The notes: a model not told the origin generated them from the sequence alone. A stretch of DNA of 64,000 nucleotides from Promethearchaeota archaeon (GCA_016839585.1 JAEOTZ010000058.1:129948-193947); one strand, 5' to 3'; shown: positions 18,411 to 31,849, counted from the stretch's first letter. Numbers and translations are program-made.

Positions 18411-18696
18411 ACCTATTTGAACAAAAGGAGCAATATTAAAGGTTTTATTTAGACAAATCTTTCAAATGAATCTGTAATTGATTATTTTTTAAAAAATTTT
18501 TTTTATTCCTTTTAATTTTCTAAATTAAAATTTTCTGTATGGTATATTTCAATTAAAAATATTAAACTGGATAATGGATTTCCCTTATCTTGATAAATGA
18601 ATAAATTTAAAAATTTAAATACCATAAAGATTGTAATAGTTAAAAATAGAAATTATTGAGTTTGAAAGAGTAATTGAGGTGAAAGGGGAAAGGAGA

Positions 18697-20637
18697 ATGA
18701 AAGATGAGAATAATCATCGGATTGGATACTATGCTTGTCAGTGAGGTATAAATATTAAAGGTAAAGTGGATTGCGGTAAACTAGTAGAATTTGCTAAAGA
18801 GATGGACGATGTCGTCATTTCAAAGAGCCATGCCTTTTTGTGTACTGAAAGTGGCCAGAATGAAATTATAGAGGATATAAATGAAAAAAAATTAACCAGT
18901 ATAGTTGCTTCTGCTTGAACACCTCGAACTCACGAACCTATTTATCGAGATTCAATTGCAAAAACAGATCTAAATCCATACTACTTTCAAATGGTTAATG
19001 TAAGAGAACATTGCTCATGGTGCACTGAAAGTAAGGAAGAGGCATTAGAAAAAGCAAAAATCTTAGTAAGGAGTGGAATCGAGAGAGCTAAAACTTTAGA
19101 AGTGGTACCTATTAAAACAGTTCCGGTAGAAAAAGCCACTTTGGTAGTTGGAGGAGGAATTGCAGGAATGAATGCAGCTTTAGATCTTGCAAATGCAGGA
19201 ATAAAAGTCTATTTAGTTGAGAGTAAAACGACAATTGGCGGAAGAATGGCTCAATTAGATAGAACATTCCCTACAGATGACTGTGCCATATGAATTTGCG
19301 GTCCAAAAATGCTAGAAGCCAATAGAAATGAAAATATTGAAATTCTCAGTTATGCTGAAGTGAAAAATGTAGAAGGTTGCGTCGGAAACTATGAAATAGC
19401 TGTGGAAATGAAACCACACTTCGTAACAAATGACTGTAATGGCTGTGGAGCGTGTTCAGAAGTTTGTCCTGTTTACACTTCTAACTATTTTGATGAGAAT
19501 CTTGGAGCTCGTAAAGCTATTGATATTGCTTTTGGTCAAGCTGTACCCTTCTTATACGATATTCAAAGAGATTGTTGCGTGGAATGTTTTAGTTGTGTAG
19601 AAGCCTGTGAACTAGACGCTATAGATTTTAGTCAAATACCAGAAGAAGTGAAATTTAAGGTAGGTACTATCATTATTGCCACGGGGTGGGATATCTATGA
19701 GCCTTATGGTGAATATGGCTATGGTGAATTCGATAACGTAATTACACAAGCCCAATTAGAACGAATGTTGGCACCTAACGGTCCATTAGAAGGCCATGTA
19801 AGGAGAATTTCAGATAATAAAAAACCAAAAGAAATTGTATTTATTCAATGTGTTGGAAGTAGAGATACGGAAAGAACTTATTGTAGTGGCGTATGCTGCA
19901 TGTTAGCACTTAAGAATGGGAAACTGATAAAAGAAGAATTTCCCGACGCAAATATTACTATTTGTTATATAGATATGCGAACTAACGAAAAAGGTTTTGA
20001 AGAATATTATCAACGAGCGAAAAACTCCGATATTCGTATGATTCGAGGTAAAGTAGGTGAGATATCTGAAGATCTTGAAACTAAGGATGTCAAAATACGC
20101 GTATACTCCTCTTTAACGGATGAAATTATTAAAATTGATGCTGATTTAGTTGTATTGTCTAGTGCAGCATTACCTTCAAAAGGGACAGAACAAATTGCTA
20201 AAGTACTGAATTTGGATGTAGATCGAAATGGATTTCTAACTGAGAGCCATTTTGGACTTATGCCACAAGAAACAAAGACAAAGGGTATTTTTATTGCCGG
20301 CTTTGCTCAAGGACCGAAAGATATTTCATATTCTGTCTCTCAAGCTAGAGCTGCAGCAAGTAAAGTCGCAGAATTAACAGCTCCAGGAAAAGTAGATATT
20401 GAATTAATAACTGCGGAAATAGATAAAGATTATTGTATCTCTTGTAGAAGATGTGAAAAAGAATGTCCTAAAGGTGCTATTAAAATTGTTGATATCGAAG
20501 GAGCTATTGTTGACGAAATAAATTGTGATGGATGTGGTATATGTGCTACTTGCTGTCCTACGCAGGCTATTGATATACGATATTATAGAGATTATCAATT
20601 ATATGCTGAAATTGAGGGGATATTAGGAGGTGATTAA
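18697..20637 (+). CDS. hdrA: Heterodisulfide reductase subunit A, selenoprotein (Sec16, Sec74, Sec199; 646 aa)
   Basis: One frame from ATG 18697; TGA at 18742 (CQUGINI), 18916 (SAUTPRTHE) and 19291 (DCAIUICGPKM), each matching a Cys in the Cys-HdrA at 25110. Confidence 0.93.
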
Positions 20638-20641
20638 ACAG

Positions 20642-21085
20642 GTGGATAATAATTTAAACATACTAATGTTTGCTTGTTTAAAATGAGGATATGGTGCTGC
20701 TGATCTAGCGGGTGTGTCACGTTTTAAATATACACCTTCGGTTAAAATAATAAAGGTACGATGCACTGGACGAGTTGATGTAAAACATATCTTATATGCG
20801 GTTAAATCTGGAGCTGATGGTGTTATGGTGGTTGGATGACGACCAGATGAATGTCAATTTAAGAGTGGAAATTTTAAAGCTCAGACTCATGTTGATTTAG
20901 CGAATAGGATCTTAGATCGAAGAGGTTTTGGAAATCAAAGAGTCAATCAATATTGGCTGAGTAGTGCTGAATCTGAAAAATTGGTGAAGAGTGTGGAAGA
21001 TACTCTTGAGAAAATTAGAAAGATTGGACCCAATCCATTAAACTTACAAGAAATAAAAGGAGTAAAAAAAGGAAAAATCCATTAA
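20642..21085 (+). CDS. mvhD: MvhD/VhuD [2Fe-2S] subunit, selenoprotein (Sec15, Sec66; 147 aa; absent from ORF track)
   Basis: GGAGGTGA SD then GTG; FACLKUGYGAADLAG...RCTGRVD...GADGVMVVGURPDEC; TGA at 20684 and 20837. Confidence 0.93.
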
Positions 21086-21088
21086 CTA

Positions 21089-21156
21089 CTCCCATAGAAT
21101 GATTCTTATAAAAAAATTATTGTTATAAGAGAACTATCCACGCGATGGAGGGAGTT
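21089..21156 (+). promoter_or_regulatory. Putative eukaryote-like SECIS element
   Basis: ATAG-A-ATGA-T-TCTTATAA-[AAAAATTATTG]-TTATAAGA-GA-A-CTAT, closed by CTCCC/GGGAG, directly after the mvhD(Sec) stop. Confidence 0.7.
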
Positions 21157-21208: not shown

Positions 21209-22714
21209 ATGGTTCAAATAATAAATAGTAAATTGTTCGAAAAAATCTCTCCTAATGATTTGATCGAAGCTACATATAAAGCTTCAGGAAATTTCCAAGT
21301 AAGAGCATTTTTTGAAGCTAAAGATGAAATCTTAAAAACAGGCAAATATACAGAAGAAGAATTCTATGAAATCTTAGATGGAATGGTTGATGCAGAAACT
21401 GAACGATACTTAATTTTAAATAAAGTAAAGGGAAAGAAACCTCTTTTTTTAGAAGAAATTGCTGAAATAATCAAAGAATTTCCTCCTGAAAATGTAATAA
21501 GAGATATCATTTACTTAAAGGAACAAGGATATATTGAGGAACATATTGAGATTAAAACTAAAACTGTTATAAAAAAAATTAAGGGAGAAGAAAAGGAAGT
21601 TGAAGAAAAAGAATATTTTTATAGATATCAAGTAAAGGAGCTTCCAGATAATTTTATTGAACATTATTTTGAACCAATTTCTATTGTATATGATGCTGGT
21701 GTATGTTGTCAATGTGGATGGTGTGCTTCTATTTGTCCTGTCAATGCAATTGCAGTCACTGCAGACACTCTTGAGATAGATGATGAGGTTTGTATGAAGT
21801 GTGGATTATGTTATTCTGTTTGTCCTCGTTCCTTTTCAATTGAACAAGCTTTATTGAGTATGAAAAAAATTGATAAATCTCTTCAATTTTCTGAAAAGAT
21901 TAACGGATATCTTAATACATATTCAGCCACAACAACTAAAGATAAGATTAAAAAAGTACGCCAAGATGGAGGAATAGTAACCTCCTTACTTGAGTATTTA
22001 TTAAAGAATAAATTAGTTGATGCTATTGTAGCAGTGCAACATTCAAAAGATTTCTGGAAACCAGAACCTGTTATTGTAGATAATTTAAACGATTTGTATA
22101 AAACGGGTGGAACTAAATATGCAAATGCATCGACTTTAGCTATTATAGGTCAAACAAAAAATTATAAGAATATAGCTGTTGTTGGAACACCATGTATGAT
22201 TAATGCAATTGAAAAAAGTAATTTATTTCCAACTAGAGTACCTTTTTTCAACAACATTAAATATAAAATTGGGCTTTTTTGCATGGAATCTTTTCCTTAT
22301 GAAGGTGTGCTTAAACTAATCAAAGAGCAATTTGATAAAGATTTTACGAAAGTAACAAAGATGGATATAAGCGGTGGAAAATTTATCATTTATTTGGATT
22401 CAGGGGAGGATTTAAGAGTCCCCCTTAATAATGTTAAATCCTATGCTCGAGCCAATTGTCATTATTGTGAAGATTTAACTTCTGATTATGCAGACATTTC
22501 TGTAGGCTCAATAGGCTCTCAAGCAGGTTGGTCTTCCGTTATCACTCGTTCAAAGAAAGGTGAAGAAATTTTCCAAGGAGCTGTTGAAGTAGGTTTAATT
22601 GAGTTTCAGAATCTAAAAGATGTTAAACCAGGACTAGGTCTTTTAGAAAGAATTGCTGATACTAAAAGAAAAAATTGTAAACCAATTGAATTAATTAAAA
22701 ATCAAAAAACTTAA
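21209..22714 (+). CDS. FrhB-family protein with 2x[4Fe-4S] and ~150-aa N-terminal extension
   Basis: CCQCGWCASICP, QDGGIVT, GTKY, VGTPC, GLFCME and CHYCED motifs. Confidence 0.9.
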   Translation: MVQIINSKLFEKISPNDLIEATYKASGNFQVRAFFEAKDEILKTGKYTEEEFYEILDGMVDAETERYLILNKVKGKKPLFLEEIAEIIKEFPPENVIRDIIYLKEQGYIEEHIEIKTKTVIKKIKGEEKEVEEKEYFYRYQVKELPDNFIEHYFEPISIVYDAGVCCQCGWCASICPVNAIAVTADTLEIDDEVCMKCGLCYSVCPRSFSIEQALLSMKKIDKSLQFSEKINGYLNTYSATTTKDKIKKVRQDGGIVTSLLEYLLKNKLVDAIVAVQHSKDFWKPEPVIVDNLNDLYKTGGTKYANASTLAIIGQTKNYKNIAVVGTPCMINAIEKSNLFPTRVPFFNNIKYKIGLFCMESFPYEGVLKLIKEQFDKDFTKVTKMDISGGKFIIYLDSGEDLRVPLNNVKSYARANCHYCEDLTSDYADISVGSIGSQAGWSSVITRSKKGEEIFQGAVEVGLIEFQNLKDVKPGLGLLERIADTKRKNCKPIELIKNQKT

Positions 22715-22718
22715 TTGA

Positions 22719-23828
22719 ATGATTTTTATGAGTGTAAAAACATTTCAAGATTTAATAACAGAAGTTCATGAGAGAGGAATATGTCAAGAATGTGGAGGCT
22801 GCGTAAGTTTTTGTAGTTCAGCTGAGTATAATGTTATTGGTCTCAAAGATCCATATAAACCTCCTGAATATATTAATAAGGAAAAATGTCTTGAATGTGG
22901 AATTTGCTATTATATATGTCCTCAGACTCATATTTTGGATAATGAGCTTAATAAAACGTATAAATTTACTGATTATTCTTCAATGCCAATAGGGTATTAT
23001 GAAGATATTTACTCTTGTCAAGCTACTGACGCGGACTTTTTGAAATATGGAACTGATGGTGGGGTTGTAAACTCTATTATAAATTTTCTAATAGAGAAGA
23101 AGTTAATTGATGGTTCTGTAGTTTCCAAAACAGAGGCTCCGTTTTCTAGAGAAGCTACATTTGCGAATAGTAAAACTGATTTATTAAAAGCTTCTGGAGC
23201 TAAATTAGATATTTCAGCTCAATTGGATGAGATCCAAAAGTTTTGCACATATACTCATTCGATTCCTAAATTGAATCATTATAAATTCAAAAAATTAGCA
23301 GTCGTAGGTACACCTTGTCAGATTTATACAATGAGATGTATGCAAGATTTAGGGGTAACTCCTTCAGAAAATATTGAAATATGTCTTGGACTCTTCTGTT
23401 ATGAGAATTTTTTATTTGATATCTCCAAAATTACTAAACTTGAGAAAGATTTCAATATAAAATTTACAGATATTGAAAAAATCAACATCAAGGAAGATTT
23501 AATTTTTAGATTAAAAGGTGATAAGGTAATTCATGTACCTTTTAACCGATTAAAATATTTTATGCGCCCTGCTTGTAATGCATGTGGTGATTTTACAAAT
23601 ATCTATGCAGATATTTCTTTTGGAGGTCTAGGTTCTCCTGATAAATATACTACTGTTATAACTCGAACAAAAAAGGGAAAAAATATCTTTTCCAGAGCAT
23701 TAGATGCGGGTGTAATTAAAAATTTAGATTTAAATCAGGCAAAAAAGAAAAAAATGTTTGATTTAATTAGCCAATATTCTCAATCAAAATTAAAACGTCA
23801 AGAAAAATTTATGAATAACCTAAAATAG
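22719..23828 (+). CDS. FrhB-family protein
   Basis: CQECGGC, TDGGVV, VGTPCQ, GLFCYE and CNACGD motifs. Confidence 0.9.
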   Translation: MIFMSVKTFQDLITEVHERGICQECGGCVSFCSSAEYNVIGLKDPYKPPEYINKEKCLECGICYYICPQTHILDNELNKTYKFTDYSSMPIGYYEDIYSCQATDADFLKYGTDGGVVNSIINFLIEKKLIDGSVVSKTEAPFSREATFANSKTDLLKASGAKLDISAQLDEIQKFCTYTHSIPKLNHYKFKKLAVVGTPCQIYTMRCMQDLGVTPSENIEICLGLFCYENFLFDISKITKLEKDFNIKFTDIEKINIKEDLIFRLKGDKVIHVPFNRLKYFMRPACNACGDFTNIYADISFGGLGSPDKYTTVITRTKKGKNIFSRALDAGVIKNLDLNQAKKKKMFDLISQYSQSKLKRQEKFMNNLK

Positions 23829-23877
23829 AGATGAGCTCACAATAACAGAATCAAAAAGAGATATTGAACGGAAAAAA

Positions 23878-25113
23878 TTGTATAATGATACATTAGATTA
23901 TTTAGAAAAGATATATGAACCAGATTTAAGAAATCTTCTAAAAAGATGCTATCAGTGTGGACGGTGTAGTGGAGTATGTCAATTAAGTAAAGTTCAAAAA
24001 TATGCACCAAGTAAAATAATTGAACTAATATTAGAAGGTTTTGAAGATAGAGTACTAGAAAGTGGCGAATTGTGGGATTGTTTAACTTGTAATCAATGTC
24101 TTAAGGATTGTCCCGAAGACATTAATTTCGCGGATATCGTAAGGATTGCAAGATATAAAATGAGACATTTTGCTAATCAAAATCCTGACGAAATTGTTGC
24201 TCATAAAGGGATTTATACAACTATTTCTGAAATCATGAGTCGTCCCTATATAACGCCAGAAAGATCACTTGACTGGGTTCCAAAAGGATGTAAAATATCA
24301 GATAAAGGCAATGTATTATATTATGTAGGGTGTTTACCTTTTTTTAATTATGAATTTGAGAATTTAGATTCAATTGCGACAAGCACATTAAAAATATTAT
24401 GTCAAATTGAAAAAGAACCTATTGTAGTATTTAAGGAAGAAAATTGCTGTGGTCATGATATTTATTGGGGTCAAGGTAAATTGAAAACCTTTATAAAGCT
24501 CGCTATGAAGAATATGGAGATGTTTGAAAAAGCAGGTATATCCAAAATTGTAACCGCTTGTGCTGAATGCTATAGGACATTTAAAGTTGATTATCCTAAT
24601 ATATTTGAAGATTTTAATGATAAATTTGATGTGAAACACGTTATTGAATATATTTATGAAAAATGGAAAGAAAATCTAATTCAATTTCATAATCCAAATA
24701 AAAAAAGTGAAAAAATACCTTTCACATATCATGATCCATGTAGGCTAAGTAGATTTTTACCTAAAGATAATAATATTATGGAAAAAGTTCGAGAGATCTT
24801 TAAAGAATTCAAAGACTTAGGTTATGATTTTAATGAAATGGAACATAATCAGAAAAACGCTTTATGTTGTGGAGTAAGTTCTTGGATGAATTGTAATGAA
24901 AAATCTAAAGCACTAAGATATAAAAGAATGTTAGAAGCAAAATCAGCGGGAGATATAATGGTTACTTCCTGTCCAAAATGTAGAATACATCTTAGCTGTC
25001 TTCAGGATGATTTTGAGGATATTGCTTCAATTGAAATTTTAGATTTTTCAGAATTTCTAATTAACCATATAAAGTTAATAAAACCTGATATAAAAGGTGA
25101 GGAAAAGAAATGA
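23878..25113 (+). CDS. HdrD/GlpC-like Fe-S oxidoreductase (HdrC-like plus CCG domains)
   Basis: CYQCGRCSGVC, CLTCNQCLKDCP, NCCG, YHDPC, LCCG and SCPKC motifs. Confidence 0.88.
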   Translation: MYNDTLDYLEKIYEPDLRNLLKRCYQCGRCSGVCQLSKVQKYAPSKIIELILEGFEDRVLESGELWDCLTCNQCLKDCPEDINFADIVRIARYKMRHFANQNPDEIVAHKGIYTTISEIMSRPYITPERSLDWVPKGCKISDKGNVLYYVGCLPFFNYEFENLDSIATSTLKILCQIEKEPIVVFKEENCCGHDIYWGQGKLKTFIKLAMKNMEMFEKAGISKIVTACAECYRTFKVDYPNIFEDFNDKFDVKHVIEYIYEKWKENLIQFHNPNKKSEKIPFTYHDPCRLSRFLPKDNNIMEKVREIFKEFKDLGYDFNEMEHNQKNALCCGVSSWMNCNEKSKALRYKRMLEAKSAGDIMVTSCPKCRIHLSCLQDDFEDIASIEILDFSEFLINHIKLIKPDIKGEEKK

Positions 25114-28100
25114 TGGAAGGTTCTGTTTTAGTTATAGGTGCTGGAATTGGTGGAATCCAATCCGCTTTAGATTTAACTGAATTAGGCTTTAAAGTCTATT
25201 TAGTGGATAGAACTCCCTCAATTGGAGGTCGTATGGCTCAACTTGATAAAACATTTCCTACAAATGATTGCAGCTTATGTATTCTTGCCCCTAAAATGGT
25301 AGAAGTATTTCGAAATCCAAATATAGAATTAATGACGTATCATGAAGTGCAAAAACTTGCTGGTAAACCAGGAGATTTTACTGTTACTGTTCTTAAAAAA
25401 CCTCGTTATGTTGATGAAATAAAATGTAAAGGATGTGGAGATTGTGCCGCTAAATGTCCAAAAATAGAGGTACCTAATCTCTTTGACATGAATTTAGGTA
25501 AGAGAAAATCAGTATATATTCCTTTTCCTCAAGCAGTTCCTCCAGTCTATCTAATAGACCCTGAATTATGTTTGAAACTTACTAAGGGGGTATGTGGTGT
25601 ATGTGCTAAAGTATGTCAAGCGGAGGCTATTGATTTTGATCAAAAACCTCAAGAAATAGAATTAAAAGTTGGAGCGATTGTAGTTGCTACTGGATTCGAT
25701 ATGCCTGCAAAAAATTTATCTTCACGGTGGGGTTATCATTATGAAAATGTAGTAAGCGCTCTTGAATACGAAAGGATTTTGTGTGCCTCTGGACCATTTG
25801 GTGGTCATGTTTTAAGACCAAGTGATCAGAAAGAACCTGAAAAAATAGCTTTTATTCAATGCGCAGGCTCAAGAGATTTGCATGAGGGGGTGCCTTATTG
25901 TTCTAGTGTTTGTTGCATGTATACTGCTAAAGAAGCAATAATAACGAAAGAACATTCTGATAACTCACAATGTTTTGTATTTCGACATGATATCAGAGCA
26001 TTTGGTAAAAATTTTTATGAATTTACGCAAAGAGCACAAAAAGAATATGGAGTAAAATATTTTCAAACTAAGATAAGTAAAATAGTAGAGGATCCGGAGA
26101 CAAACGATTTAATTATTCATTATGAAGATTTAAAAACAGGTACATTTCATGATTTTCAAGCTAATTTAGTTGTATTAGCGACTCCTTTAGTCCCCTCCAC
26201 AGGATCTAAAGATTTAGCAAAGATTTTAGAAATAGAACTGGATGAATATCACTTTTTCAAAGAAAAAGATTATTTTAATAAATCTAAATCAACTAAAGAT
26301 GGAATATATTTATGTGGATTCTGTCAAGGTCCGATGGATATACCAGAAACTGTTGCTGATGCAAGTGGAGTAGCAGGTCAAGTTGCAGCATTCTTGAATT
26401 CTGTTAAATTTGATCATATAAAAGAGAAGTTAGAAGTTCCCGAATTAGATATAAAAGCTACTGATGAACCAAGAATAGGGGTTCTAATCTGTCATTGTGG
26501 AATTAACATAGGTAAATATGTTCATGTACCTCTACTTGCTGAATATGTAAGAACTTTGCCTAATGTAGTTCAATGTGAAGATAATTTATACTCATGTAGC
26601 TCTGACTCGCAGACACGAATTAAAGAATTAATTAAAGATCACAAATTAAACCGATTTATTGTTGCTTCTTGCACACCAAGAACCCATGAAGCTTTATTTC
26701 AAGAAACCTGTCAAGAAGCAGGTTTAAATAAATATTTATTCGAAATGGTTAATATTAGAGATCAATGTTCTTGTGTTCATATGGACGATGCAGAAGCAGC
26801 AACCCAAAAAGCTAAAGATTTAATAAGAATGTCTGTTGCTAAATCAAGATTATTAAAACCTCTGAAAGAAGAATTATTAAAGATTACTCCAACCTCATTA
26901 ATTATCGGCGGTGGAATTGGTGGAATGAGTGCAGCCTTAAACATTGCTGAACAAGGTTTCAAAACATTTTTAGTAGAAAAAGAGAGCTTTTTAGGAGGAA
27001 ATTTGAATTACCTAAATGTGTTATACCCCATTGAAGAAAATGCTTCAGACTTCTTAAATGAGACTATCGAAAAGGTTAATCATAATAAAAATATTCAAAT
27101 CTTCCTAAATGCAAAAATTGGAGATATTAAAGGATATGTTGGTAATTACATCGTATCTATTGTTGATTCAAAAAATGAAACTCACGAATTAAGTATAGGA
27201 ACTATAATTGTAGCTACTGGAGGTAAAGAATATAAACCTAAAGATATGTTTCAGTATAAAAAAGAGAATAAAAATGTCATAACCCAATTAGAACTAGAAC
27301 AAAAACTAAAAGAAAAAGGGAAATCTTGGCTTGATGATATAAATAGAATAACAACAATTCTGTGTGTAAATGCACGGCAAGTTGAAGGAATAACCTATTG
27401 TTCTAACATTTGCTGTGGGAATTCTATTAAAAACATTGGACTCTTAAAAAAGTTAAAGCCTGAACTTGAAATTGCGGTACTTTATAGAGATCTTCAAATG
27501 GCTAAGAAAAAGTATGAAGAGTATTATCGTGAACGTAGAAAAGATGCTATATTTTTAAGATATGACTTGGATAATATACCAATCATCAGTAAAGTAAACA
27601 AAGATCCAGAAAAATACAATATAAAATTTTACGATACTAATCTCCAAGATTTCATAGAATTTAATACAGATTTAATTGTATTATCAACTCCTATGATTCC
27701 GGCGGATAATTTGGAAGAATTAGCAAAAATGCTTAAAGTTCCTTTAGATAGAAATGGTTTTTTCCTAGAAGCCCACGTAAAATTAAGACCATTAGATTTT
27801 GCCACAGATGGAATTTTCTTATGTGGATGCGCACAATGGCCAAAAAATATACAAGATACTATTTCTCAAGCAAATGGAGCTGCGGGTAGAGCAAGTAGAT
27901 TTTTAAGCGCCAAAGAAATTAAAACTTCGGGAATAGTTGCAGAAGTAGATCCAGTAAATTGCATTGGGTGTGGAAAATGTGAATCAGTATGTCCTTATAA
28001 CGCTATTGATATTTTAGAATCTGCAAAAGATTATGAGGAAGTAAGCTTAATTGTAAGAAAATCATTTGTTAATTCAGCCTTATGTAAAGGGTGTGGTACA

Positions 28101-28196
28101 TGCGCTGCAACTTGCCCAAATGGAGCTATATCTATAATGCAATACGATTTTGATCAAATAACTGCTATGATAGAATCATATTTATTAGAATTATAA
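25110..28196 (+). CDS. Large HdrA-like protein with two FAD domains (Cys-encoded)
   Basis: GAGIGG...DKTFPTNDCSLC; internal CHCGINI/CTPRTHE; second GGGIGG; C-terminal ferredoxin. Confidence 0.92.
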   Translation: MMEGSVLVIGAGIGGIQSALDLTELGFKVYLVDRTPSIGGRMAQLDKTFPTNDCSLCILAPKMVEVFRNPNIELMTYHEVQKLAGKPGDFTVTVLKKPRYVDEIKCKGCGDCAAKCPKIEVPNLFDMNLGKRKSVYIPFPQAVPPVYLIDPELCLKLTKGVCGVCAKVCQAEAIDFDQKPQEIELKVGAIVVATGFDMPAKNLSSRWGYHYENVVSALEYERILCASGPFGGHVLRPSDQKEPEKIAFIQCAGSRDLHEGVPYCSSVCCMYTAKEAIITKEHSDNSQCFVFRHDIRAFGKNFYEFTQRAQKEYGVKYFQTKISKIVEDPETNDLIIHYEDLKTGTFHDFQANLVVLATPLVPSTGSKDLAKILEIELDEYHFFKEKDYFNKSKSTKDGIYLCGFCQGPMDIPETVADASGVAGQVAAFLNSVKFDHIKEKLEVPELDIKATDEPRIGVLICHCGINIGKYVHVPLLAEYVRTLPNVVQCEDNLYSCSSDSQTRIKELIKDHKLNRFIVASCTPRTHEALFQETCQEAGLNKYLFEMVNIRDQCSCVHMDDAEAATQKAKDLIRMSVAKSRLLKPLKEELLKITPTSLIIGGGIGGMSAALNIAEQGFKTFLVEKESFLGGNLNYLNVLYPIEENASDFLNETIEKVNHNKNIQIFLNAKIGDIKGYVGNYIVSIVDSKNETHELSIGTIIVATGGKEYKPKDMFQYKKENKNVITQLELEQKLKEKGKSWLDDINRITTILCVNARQVEGITYCSNICCGNSIKNIGLLKKLKPELEIAVLYRDLQMAKKKYEEYYRERRKDAIFLRYDLDNIPIISKVNKDPEKYNIKFYDTNLQDFIEFNTDLIVLSTPMIPADNLEELAKMLKVPLDRNGFFLEAHVKLRPLDFATDGIFLCGCAQWPKNIQDTISQANGAAGRASRFLSAKEIKTSGIVAEVDPVNCIGCGKCESVCPYNAIDILESAKDYEEVSLIVRKSFVNSALCKGCGTCAATCPNGAISIMQYDFDQITAMIESYLLEL

Positions 28197-28214
28197 AAAA
28201 TGTTGTAATATATT

Positions 28215-28652
28215 ATGCCAAAAGCAAAAACAAAAGTAATAAGAAAAGACTTTACTCCAGAAATACTAGTTTTTTGTTGTAATTGGTGTTCGTATGCAGG
28301 AGCAGATTTAGCAGGGGTTTCCAGATTTCAATATCCCCCTAACATGAGAATAATACGAGTAATGTGTTCTGGAAGAGTTGATCCTGCATTTGTAATAAAA
28401 GCTTTAAAAGAGGGAGCTGATGGAATACTCATCACAGGATGCCATATTGGCGATTGTCATTATATTTCTGGAAATGAGTATGCTCAAGAAAGATTTGGAC
28501 GATTACATGAAATAATAATTAAACAATTAGGTATTAATGAAAAAAGAGTCAGGTTAGAATGGGTAAGTGCATCAGAAGGAAAGCGGTTTGCTGATTTGAT
28601 CACAGAATTTACAAACCAAATAAAGGAATTAGGACCTTTGAAGGTACTTTAG
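28215..28652 (+). CDS. mvhD: MvhD [2Fe-2S] subunit (Cys version)
   Basis: FCCNWCSYAGAD, MCSGRVD and GCHIGDCHY motifs. Confidence 0.95.
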   Translation: MPKAKTKVIRKDFTPEILVFCCNWCSYAGADLAGVSRFQYPPNMRIIRVMCSGRVDPAFVIKALKEGADGILITGCHIGDCHYISGNEYAQERFGRLHEIIIKQLGINEKRVRLEWVSASEGKRFADLITEFTNQIKELGPLKVL

Positions 28653-29083
28653 TTAAAACCATTTAAAGATTAAAGAAGAATCCTGTTTTTCTTATAAATC
28701 TTAATTTTTTAATACCTATTTAAGAATAAATTTTTTTATATAAACCTCAAGTTCCATATTATCATAGCTGAATTCAATAAAAAATAGGAGTTAATATTAT
28801 TAATAACGATAAATGATAAGGAAAAATTTATCGATATTGATCAAAGTTTACTAAAGTGATAGCCATTTATTGAAAGAATTTTTGCTTTCAATAAAATATA
28901 TATGAAAGATTTTCAGAAATTTACTTTATTATTAATGGAATTCGACATTTTTGAGCATAATACTTAAATAAATGCTTTTACTTATCTTATGATTAGCACA
29001 TATTTTCTTGACCGAATTGTTAAGAAATTTTTCCAATAAAATTGAATAATTAAGTTATTACATTGTTCTATGAGGTAATTTCT

Positions 29084-31849
29084 TTGGAAGGTTCTGTGTT
29101 AGTAATTGGTGGAGGAATGGCTGGAATACAAACCTCTTTAGATTTAACTGAATTAGGGTTTAAAGTTTATTTAATAGAAAAAGAAGCATCAATTGGCGGT
29201 CATATGGCTCAATTTGATAAACAATTCCCTGCAAACGACTGTAGTTTATGTATGCTTGCTCCAAAAATGGTTGCAGTTTATAAGAATCCCAATATTGAAT
29301 TATTTACTTTATCTGAGATTAAAAAAGTTAGTGGAAACCAGGGAAATTTTAAAGTTTCGATAGTTAAAAATCCTAGATATGTTGACGAAACCAAATGTAG
29401 GGGTTGTGGAGATTGTACTGCGAAGTGCCCAAAGATTGAAGCTCCGAATATTTTTGACATGAATTTAGGAAAAAGGAAATCAATTTATATCCCTTTCCCT
29501 CAAGCAACTCCTCCTGTATATTTAATAGACCCGGAATTATGTTTATTTTTAAATAGAGATGTATGTGGGGTATGTAAAAAAGTTTGTAAGGGTGATGCAA
29601 TTAATTTTTATCAAAAATCTCAAGAAATTGAATTGAATGTAGGTGCTATCGTCGTTGCTACAGGGTTTGATATGCTTGGAGAAGAATTATCTTCAAAATG
29701 GGGGTATCAATATAAAAATGTGGTAAATGGTTTAGAATATGAAAGAATATTATGCCCAACAGGACCATTTGGTACACATATCTTAAGACCAAGCAATGAA
29801 GAAGAGCCTGAGAAAATAGCATTTATACAGTGTGCAGGATCTGGTTATCAAGAAAATCAGATTCCTTATTGTTCCCGTGTATGTTGTATGTATACAGCAA
29901 AAAATGCAATTTTAACAAAAATTTATGCCGAAACTCCTCAAATTACAGTTTTTAGACATAATATTCGGGTTTTTGGTCGAGATTTTTATGAGTATACTAA
30001 AAATGCTCAAGAAGAATATGGCATTAAATATATTAACAGTAAGATACAAATTATTGAAGAAGAACCAGAAACAAACGATATAATTATATATTATAGAGAT
30101 ATGAAATCTGGAGAAGATAAAACTTATAAAGCAAATTTAGTAGTTCTGGCAGCGCCATTGGTACCTTCAAAGGGGACAGAGAAATTAGCTAAAATCTTAG
30201 GAATTAAATTAGATAAATACAATTTTCTCCAATCAAAATCTTACTTTAATAAATCTTTATCAACTAAAGAAGGGATTTATCTATGTGGTTTTTGTCAAAG
30301 TCCCATGAATATTTCAGAAACGGTTGCTAATGCAAGCGGAGTTGCAGGGGAAGTAGCAACGATATTGAATCCAGTTAGATACTCGCAAATAAAAGAAAGG
30401 GAGATTAATATCTTACCAGAAGGGGATATAATTAAAATCACTCCAAGGGCATTAGTTATAGGTGGTGGAGTCTCTGGTATGACTGCTTCCTTAAATCTTA
30501 GTAATCAAGGATTTGAGACTATTCTTTTAGAAAAAGAGAATCAATTAGGAGGAAATATCAATTATATTAATGTGTTGTACCCTACTAAACAAAGTGCTCC
30601 AGATTTCCTTTTTAATATTGAAGAAGAGGTTAGGATCAATACAAATATTAAAATATTTTTAAATTCAAAAATTGAAAGTATTTCAGGGTCAATTGGAAAT
30701 TATGACGTATCATTTTTAGATATAAATGATAAAATCCATGATATTAGAGTCGGAACGATAATCCTTGCTACAGGAAGTCAAGAATTTAAACCGATAGGTC
30801 TTTTTCAATACAATAAAAATAATAAAAATGTTTTAACTCTTTTAGAACTAGAGAAAAAGCTGAAAAGTAAGGATAATTCTTGGCTTACCAAGATAAATCA
30901 TATTACTATAGTTTTATGTGTTAAAGCAAGACAAAAAGACGGATTCTCATATTGTTCAAATGTATGTTGTAATAATACTATAAAAAATATTGAAATTTTA
31001 AAGGAAATTAATTCAAAAATCAAAATACTCGTTCTATTCAGAGATCTTCATATGGCTAAAAAAGAGCTTGAAGATCTATTTAGTAAAAGGAAAAAAATCG
31101 CTGAATATATTAGATATAATTTAGAAAACATCCCTGAAGTTGTTAAGATGAGACAGAATCCAGAAAAATACATAATAAAATTGCGAGATGATTCTAATCC
31201 GGATAATATTATTGAATTTAATACTGATTTAATTGTATTAGCAACTCCAATGATCCCACCTGATGATTTAAAGGATTTGTCACATATGCTTGATGTTCCT
31301 CTTGATGAAAATGGATTTTTTATTGAAGCACATACAAAATTAAGACCTTTAGATTTTGCAGGGCATGGAATTTTTGTTTGTGGATGTGCACAATGGCCAA
31401 AAAATATACAAGATTGTATATCACAGGCAAATGCAGCAGCTGGTCGGGCAAGTAGATTCTTAAGTGTAAAACAAATTTCAACGACAAAATTGGAATATCT
31501 CTCATTTATGCTCTCTATTCAGTGTTTCTTCAAAGATATGAAAGTTAATGCTGAAAGATGTAATGGTTGTGGTAGATGCGCTGAAGTTTGTCAATTCAAA
31601 GCAATAACACTTACAGATTCTAAACAAGAATATGAGGATGTTAGTATTGCCGCTAAAAAAGCTATTATTAATCCTGCTATATGTAAAGGATGTGGAAAAT
31701 GTTCTGCAACTTGTCGATTAAAGGCAATTGATGCAAGACATTATGACTTTAAACAAATCTCTGCTATAATTGATCCATATTTTTTAGAAAAAGCAAAACC
31801 AGAGGAAAAATTTGATGATGGGACAACAGAACTTACAATAATTAAGTGA
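29084..31849 (+). CDS. Second large HdrA-like protein, lacking the internal Fe-S domain
   Basis: Paralog of the 25110 ORF; GAGGT SD then TTG at 29084. Confidence 0.88.
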   Translation: MEGSVLVIGGGMAGIQTSLDLTELGFKVYLIEKEASIGGHMAQFDKQFPANDCSLCMLAPKMVAVYKNPNIELFTLSEIKKVSGNQGNFKVSIVKNPRYVDETKCRGCGDCTAKCPKIEAPNIFDMNLGKRKSIYIPFPQATPPVYLIDPELCLFLNRDVCGVCKKVCKGDAINFYQKSQEIELNVGAIVVATGFDMLGEELSSKWGYQYKNVVNGLEYERILCPTGPFGTHILRPSNEEEPEKIAFIQCAGSGYQENQIPYCSRVCCMYTAKNAILTKIYAETPQITVFRHNIRVFGRDFYEYTKNAQEEYGIKYINSKIQIIEEEPETNDIIIYYRDMKSGEDKTYKANLVVLAAPLVPSKGTEKLAKILGIKLDKYNFLQSKSYFNKSLSTKEGIYLCGFCQSPMNISETVANASGVAGEVATILNPVRYSQIKEREINILPEGDIIKITPRALVIGGGVSGMTASLNLSNQGFETILLEKENQLGGNINYINVLYPTKQSAPDFLFNIEEEVRINTNIKIFLNSKIESISGSIGNYDVSFLDINDKIHDIRVGTIILATGSQEFKPIGLFQYNKNNKNVLTLLELEKKLKSKDNSWLTKINHITIVLCVKARQKDGFSYCSNVCCNNTIKNIEILKEINSKIKILVLFRDLHMAKKELEDLFSKRKKIAEYIRYNLENIPEVVKMRQNPEKYIIKLRDDSNPDNIIEFNTDLIVLATPMIPPDDLKDLSHMLDVPLDENGFFIEAHTKLRPLDFAGHGIFVCGCAQWPKNIQDCISQANAAAGRASRFLSVKQISTTKLEYLSFMLSIQCFFKDMKVNAERCNGCGRCAEVCQFKAITLTDSKQEYEDVSIAAKKAIINPAICKGCGKCSATCRLKAIDARHYDFKQISAIIDPYFLEKAKPEEKFDDGTTELTIIK

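Follow-up and report, generated by a model that had tools for sequence, protein, structure and literature searches.

How can a full-length HdrA be made from a gene whose reading frame is broken three times by TGA? The question is raised by a locus in a 64,000-nucleotide stretch of a Promethearchaeota genome (the whole stretch is called the window here), for which an earlier note, made from the sequence alone, had proposed selenocysteine (Sec) at all three sites. Its case for Sec recoding stands, while its account of the gene missed a two-Sec vhuD directly downstream and a single shared SECIS. The locus is best read as a two-gene selenoprotein unit, hdrA and vhuD, whose five UGAs would be served by one SECIS (Table 1); we put the probability of this reading at about 93%.

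The hdrA frame and its UGA codons

Retranslation of the plus strand with TGA read as U yields a single frame of 646 residues that runs from ATG 18697 to a TAA stop (20635-20637) and, as described previously, is broken only by the three TGAs at 18742, 18916 and 19291. A frame of 647 codons without TAA or TAG at 29% G+C, matching HdrA from end to end (E 2e-194), excludes chance. The standard-code ORF list holds the gene only as two fragments, 18991-19293 (100 aa) and 19309-20637 (442 aa), as had been seen in the ORF track. A GTG start at 18679 (VKGERRM...) is used in the PMC11227280 catalogue. ATG 18697 is favored here because orthologs have in common an ATG-type start that precedes the RIGYY motif by 8-9 residues. 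Neither candidate, GTG 18679 or ATG 18697, has a Shine-Dalgarno sequence at the ideal spacing.

Alignment of the read-through protein to the HdrA family, which the earlier note had put forward as a check, pairs residues 7-644 with the solved HdrA chains 9sfi_A, 5odc_A, 8rvu_a and 7bkb_A, with a best E value of 2e-194. HdrA is subunit A of heterodisulfide reductase, an electron-bifurcating flavoprotein. The protein is composed of the N-terminal cluster domain, a FAD/thioredoxin-reductase-like domain, an inserted ferredoxin and a C-terminal 2x[4Fe-4S] ferredoxin; Pfam recognizes the Pyr_redox_2/FAD fold and several Fer4 (4Fe-4S ferredoxin) domains. The Cys set of the family, comprising the N-terminal Cys, DCxxC near residue 197 and CVGSRD...YCSxxCC of cluster HA4, is complete, with three members replaced by Sec. 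A conserved Cys stands opposite each of the three UGAs, both in the in-window paralog and in five solved HdrA structures. The segments CHCGINI, ASCTPRTHE and DCSLCILAPKM of this paralog (25110-28196), already singled out from the sequence, place Cys at the three U sites in BLASTP alignments. The counterparts of U199 are Cys197 in 5odc_A and Sec197 (printed X) in Methanococcus maripaludis 9sfi_A (PMC13518236; PMC9012536).

Table 1. Positions of the hdrA-vhuD-SECIS features, counted from the first nucleotide of the window
Feature	Position	Strand	Details
hdrA CDS	18697..20637	+	646 codons + TAA; matches 9sfi_A (E 2e-194) and 5odc_A (E 3e-191) over residues 7-644
UGA codon 16 (Sec)	18742..18744	+	context YACQ-U-GINI; Cys13 of PDB 5odc_A; TGA in 65/65 aligned orthologs
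UGA codon 74 (Sec)	18916..18918	+	context VASA-U-TPRTHE; Cys71 of PDB 5odc_A; TGA in 66/66 aligned orthologs
UGA codon 199 (Sec), canonical HdrA Sec site	19291..19293	+	context DCAI-U-ICGPKM; TGA in 65/65 aligned orthologs
vhuD/mvhD (FlpD family) CDS	20642..21085	+	147 codons; GTG start 4 nt past the hdrA stop, preceded by GGAGGTGA; Pfam FlpD E 1.6e-43
vhuD UGA (Sec) codons	20684-20686 (U15), 20837-20839 (U66)	+	coincide with both Sec sites (printed X) in M. maripaludis VhuD 9sfi_K
SECIS (lokiSECIS, type I eukaryote-like)	21088..21155	+	fold z = -2.7; covariance model 87.6 bits
SECIS lower/outer helix, ACUCCC/GGGAGU	21088-21093 / 21150-21155	+	
SECIS AUGA core	21099-21102	+	starts 13 nt after the vhuD TAA
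SECIS upper stem, 9 positions	21103-21111 / 21123-21131	+	
SECIS apical loop, 11 nt, A-rich	21112-21122	+	AAAAAUUAUUG
SECIS 3' core AA	21132-21133	+	
SECIS side hairpin	21138-21141 / 21145-21148	+	

A genome scan recovered 72 orthologous hdrA loci, all from Asgard MAGs, and 65-66 of them cover each TGA site in a codon-aware alignment. The aligned orthologs belong to Promethearchaeota (Lokiarchaeia) MAGs and share 78-96% identity. Codons 16, 74 and 199 are TGA in every ortholog that covers them (65-66 of 65-66) and never TGT, TGC, TAA or TAG. Relatives with stops at non-Cys positions, which had been named beforehand as evidence that would speak against recoding, do not occur among these orthologs, in which TGA falls only on Cys columns. 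Position 49, Cys in the window HdrA, is Sec in 39 of 67 orthologs and Cys in the other 28, and position 300 is Sec in three of the 67. The description of this HdrA as unusually Sec-rich thus holds against Methanococcales, which have one Sec, but not within its own ortholog group, where three is the minimum and most members carry the fourth at position 49.

Codon differences among the orthologs are mostly synonymous, with a share of 58-76% in residues 17-73, 75-198 and 200-646, a pattern that signifies purifying selection on every segment between the UGAs. The stretches dropped by standard gene calling are thus as constrained as the remainder. The hdrA stop itself is TAA or TAG in 63/63 orthologous loci. 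A protein search returned more than 100 relatives as truncated 442-aa calls (from Promethearchaeota, Hod-, Heimdall-, Thor- and Odinarchaeota MAGs), together with 16 full-length relatives of 79-96% identity. All 16 have W at the three Sec sites, which implies that their TGAs were called under code 4.

vhuD, the SECIS element and the Sec machinery

The second gene of the unit, vhuD, is absent altogether from public gene calls. Its U15 aligns with Cys16 of Methanothermobacter marburgensis MvhD. VhuD and HdrA's N-terminal domain are presumably homologous, yet BLASTP between the two is not significant (E 0.19), and for this reason the relationship was not counted as evidence on Cys/Sec ligands. 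Past the SECIS, a same-strand Hdr supercluster (21209-31849) comprises two FrhB-like genes, an HdrB/C-like CCG protein (23878-25113), a 1028-aa fused double HdrA of the Cys type (25110-28196), a Cys-type MvhD and a third HdrA-like protein of ~910 aa. Hydrogenase subunits are not found within the 64-kb window. This arrangement suggests a module for electron input, connected with F420 or some other cofactor, in which Sec and Cys isoforms lie next to each other.

The same SECIS element follows vhuD at nearly every orthologous locus. In an alignment of 58 such sequences AUGA is invariant (58/58), as are three As of the loop and the last A in the 3' core. Pairing in the upper stem reaches 94%, with compensatory changes at each of the nine pairs; the observed pairing and covariation were reached in 0/500 shuffles, and all slid controls gave ~50% pairing. 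The 3' core reads AA in the window and its closest relatives and GA in most other orthologs. The window element thus lacks the canonical 3' GA (tandem sheared G.A pairs of a kink-turn core) that serves as a criterion of lokiSECIS. The AUGA_AA core is nevertheless described as a variant for Lokiarchaeia hdrA/frhD in PMC11227280; it is a variant within the lokiSECIS family and no ground for exclusion. The side hairpin (21138-21148) is 82% paired across the 58 orthologs, with compensatory double changes at three of four pairs, and is not mentioned in the accessible portions of PMC4989117 and PMC11227280.

A covariance model built from the 58-sequence alignment was used to search the window (with the filter off) and the genome. 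It has one strong match in the window, at 87.6 bits, and the next best scores 17 bits; hdrA is consequently without a SECIS of its own. No match was obtained when the window was scanned with Rfam at gathering thresholds, so that no curated SECIS family fits the element. The genome contains seven strong matches, each located just downstream of an ORF with an in-frame TGA: four follow hdrA-vhuD pairs, and the others follow a Prx-like gene, a vhuU gene that reads FDC-U-LSCAAH and a small membrane ORF. For the last of these matches (66.6 bits; contig C31:25700-26023) the distance from the membrane ORF is 22 nt; that ORF has one helix and an in-frame UGA (GGPS-U-LC), and no known selenoprotein family is recognized in it. 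The three further hdrA-vhuD-SECIS units are on contigs C45, C59 and C79. Their HdrA proteins have two Sec each, at 16 and the canonical site, and Cys at the equivalent of 74, which makes the window HdrA the most Sec-rich of the four units found in the genome. A fifth unit appears in the PMC11227280 catalogue.

The genome (3.45 Mb, 29% G+C, 99% complete) encodes the machinery for Sec synthesis and insertion. SepSecS is identified at E 3e-116, and directly beside it the Rfam tRNA-Sec model finds a candidate tRNA-Sec whose anticodon is UCA and whose T-loop contains a 31-nt insertion. The candidate scores 34.6 bits against a gathering score of 47, a shortfall attributable to the 31-nt intron. A T-loop intron of the same kind is reported for the tRNA-Sec of Lokiarchaeum (PMC4989117). 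EFSec/SelB, 3.5 kb from SepSecS and tRNA-Sec, scores right at the TIGR00475 cut-off; the three genes are clustered within ~5.5 kb (contig C86:58379-63929). A PSTK of the KTI12 family and two tandem selD genes with one TGA each (contig C5:26616-28714) are also present. A search for tRNA-Sec, EFSec, SepSecS, PSTK and SelD, suggested in the earlier note, thus accounts for all five. The SECIS model, which is based on hdrA-vhuD, has no match at either selD, consistent with the type II SECIS reported for selD. ARAGORN detects no tRNA-Sec in the genome with intron mode on or off, and only 11-18 tRNAs in total despite 99% completeness; the low count and the missed tRNA-Sec suggest that non-canonical tRNA introns or split tRNAs are widespread.

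Taken with these components, the locus would function as follows. hdrA and vhuD would be transcribed as one bicistronic mRNA with the eukaryote-like SECIS hairpin near its 3' end. This hairpin would direct the archaeal Sec-specific elongation factor, carrying Sec-tRNA with anticodon UCA, to the two UGAs of vhuD and to the three of hdrA, 1.8-2.4 kb upstream (the farthest ~2.36 kb away). Termination of hdrA would be independent of UGA, since its stop is TAA. Insertion of selenium at all five codons would produce full-length HdrA with Sec16, Sec74 and Sec199 and VhuD with Sec15 and Sec66. By homology to the solved Hdr-Mvh/Vhu complexes, the two proteins are predicted to form a flavin-based electron-bifurcating module, in which Sec199, as the canonical Cys/Sec197, would be flanked by FAD and the N-terminal [4Fe-4S] 'shuttle' cluster. 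To our knowledge, no organism offers a precedent for a single SECIS that works over 2.4 kb and across a cistron boundary.

Other readings of the in-frame TGAs

That distance is the starting point of the alternative that survives best, although we consider it improbable. Only part of the UGAs would encode Sec, UGA199 for instance, with UGA16 and UGA74 inefficient or read as Cys; or the UGAs would act mainly as selenium-dependent attenuators, with a large share of translation stopping early and full-length HdrA being made only when selenium is plentiful. The first UGAs indeed lie 2.2-2.4 kb from the sole SECIS of the window and across a cistron boundary. Cys-type HdrA and MvhD paralogs 4.5 kb downstream in the same cluster are possible substitutes, and Methanococcus is known to switch between Sec and Cys isoforms depending on selenium (PMC11097638). 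However, UGA16 and UGA74 are conserved as strictly as UGA199 (65-66 of 65-66 orthologs), whereas at an inefficient or harmful UGA one would expect reversion to TGT or TGC in at least some lineages. Such changes are accessible, as position 49 is freely Cys (28 orthologs) or Sec (39). The N-terminal segment of HdrA is also under purifying selection.

Far less probable is a reassignment of TGA to Trp or Gly in the organism or in this gene, as several metagenome gene callers assumed; 16 database orthologs are deposited with W at each of the three sites. These W calls stem from contigs of 2-7 kb, and the code-4 call is an artifact. TGA is a genuine terminator elsewhere, as at 25113, 31849 and 54720, sites also listed in the earlier note; it ends 4/38 long ORFs in the window and 208/1592 (13%) in the genome, which indicates an unchanged genetic code. 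Moreover, every in-frame TGA falls on a Cys-aligned column of a Cys-rich redox protein, and the UCA-anticodon tRNA that adjoins SepSecS has a Sec-type architecture. The initial proposal of site-specific Sec recoding under an unchanged code is upheld by the Sec machinery of the genome and by relatives with TGA at Cys positions only.

Decay of hdrA to a pseudogene, or an assembly error, with expression of only the 442-aa ORF (19309-20637) or of nothing, is about as implausible as reassignment: standard ORF calling and most public annotations do give the 442-aa piece only, but this piece would lack both the GGGIAG motif for FAD binding and the N-terminal domain, the same three TGAs recur in 72 independent assemblies, hdrA has neither TAA/TAG stops nor frameshifts, the synonymous share is 0.76 upstream of the third TGA against 0.71 downstream, and neither a loss of conservation upstream of codon 199 nor stops at non-Cys positions in relatives are seen. 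Pseudogene, changed genetic code and assembly error were all considered and rejected for hdrA.

Known Sec-HdrA systems and the N-terminal cluster

The three-Sec HdrA, the HdrA-VhuD pair and the shared eukaryote-like SECIS are real, well supported and already known, since the phenomenon was published in 2016 (PMC4989117) and the exact protein was catalogued in 2024 (PMC11227280). Mariotti et al. (2016) described in Lokiarchaeota a multi-Sec HdrA with up to four Sec, an invariable HdrA-VhuD tandem, the rule that hdrA stops at TAA or TAG, and a single shared lokiSECIS for up to six UGAs over ~2 kb (PMC4989117). Huang, Xiao and Zhang (2024) catalogued 1439 Asgard selenoproteins (PMC11227280). In supplementary files 77 and 75 of that work, Lokiarchaeia_GCA_016839585_U_3 is identical to the window HdrA over the ~310 residues shown and to the whole of VhuD, the Sec residues being printed as X; an hdrA on another contig and two vhuD paralogs of the genome appear under the same assembly name. 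The background given in the earlier note, that HdrA is a selenoprotein in Methanococcales and that Lokiarchaeota have Sec proteins, agrees with Sec197 of 9sfi and with PMC4989117.

Set against the published Loki/Asgard HdrA-VhuD (FrhD) pairs, the locus has the same Sec on Cys columns, including the one near residue 200, and the same two-Sec vhuD directly downstream. The single SECIS past vhuD (AUGA, 9-bp stem, 11-nt A-rich loop), the TAA/TAG stop of hdrA and the 31-nt T-loop intron of tRNA-Sec are likewise the same. The window copy has an AUGA_AA core, three Sec where the published maximum is four, and a start at ATG 18697 rather than GTG 18679; nothing of substance differs. M. maripaludis HdrA (PDB 9sfi; PMC13518236) belongs to the same family over its full length, with Sec at U197 where the window protein has U199, and the two Sec sites of its VhuD partner are also those of the window VhuD. 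HdrA of Methanococcales and Methanopyrus has one Sec rather than three. In methanogens each gene has a classical archaeal 3'-UTR SECIS, in contrast to the eukaryote-like element here, and HdrA serves the reduction of CoM-S-S-CoB, whereas the present host is a presumed non-methanogen in which any physiological substrate assigned to HdrA is putative.

Outside archaea, the closest parallels are the type I SECIS of eukaryotes and the multi-Sec SelenoP. These share a kink-turn-type AUGA core and unpaired apical As with the window element, as well as a 3'-UTR site acting at a distance and the use of one element for several UGAs. The archaeal element differs in its AA 3' core, its putatively polycistronic mRNA and its extra conserved side hairpin. 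No SBP2 is known in Asgard archaea (PMC4989117).

The role of the Sec residues touches on recent structural work on HdrA. In the crystal structure, Cys197 is the fourth ligand of the N-terminal cluster and is given by the partner protomer (PMC9012536). In the cryo-EM work, Sec197 and a Cys form a pair that lies between cluster A3 and FAD, in a role that is called unresolved (PMC13518236), and the equivalent Cys202/Cys205 pair carries an unknown ligand (PMC13580544). MvhD Cys16, the equivalent of VhuD U15, is named as another 'additional' conserved Cys (PMC13580544). Among the aligned solved HdrA sequences and the in-window paralog, N-terminal Cys is conserved in just four columns (14, 16, 49 and 74). 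If three of these and Cys197' bind the cluster, U16 and/or U74 would be a ligand. From these alignments it is plausible, as the earlier note had proposed for two of the three Sec residues, that U16 and U74 occupy N-terminal Fe-S ligand positions; residue numbers for the ligands of cluster HA3/A3 were not found in the HdrA literature searched.

A bolder suggestion, which we advance tentatively and regard as somewhat doubtful, is that the Sec sites 16, 74 and 199, together with 49 in most orthologs, are the residues that bind the mobile 'shuttle' cluster HA3/A3, the N-terminal [4Fe-4S] cluster, or take turns on it. They would then not be dispersed 'extra' redox Cys, as they were taken to be in 2016, when no HdrA structure was available and the Sec sites were said not to be cluster ligands (PMC4989117). 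The ligand role is the only part of the present analysis that might exceed the published literature. If it is correct, Lokiarchaeial HdrA would have a largely selenolate-ligated Fe-S cluster, with two to three of four ligands in the window protein and three to four in the four-Sec orthologs, and a ligand swap between Sec16 and Sec199 could accompany the movement of the arm by which electron bifurcation is gated. The mechanistic interest of the locus lies in why this lineage has selenium at three to five sites near the shuttle cluster and the Cys/Sec197 relay, which has a role that the cryo-EM papers of 2026 call unresolved.

The locus is also of value for annotation, because public gene calls cut hdrA to a 442-aa fragment or render its UGAs as Trp. 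Beyond the single gene, the shared eukaryote-like SECIS links the archaeal and eukaryotic Sec systems.
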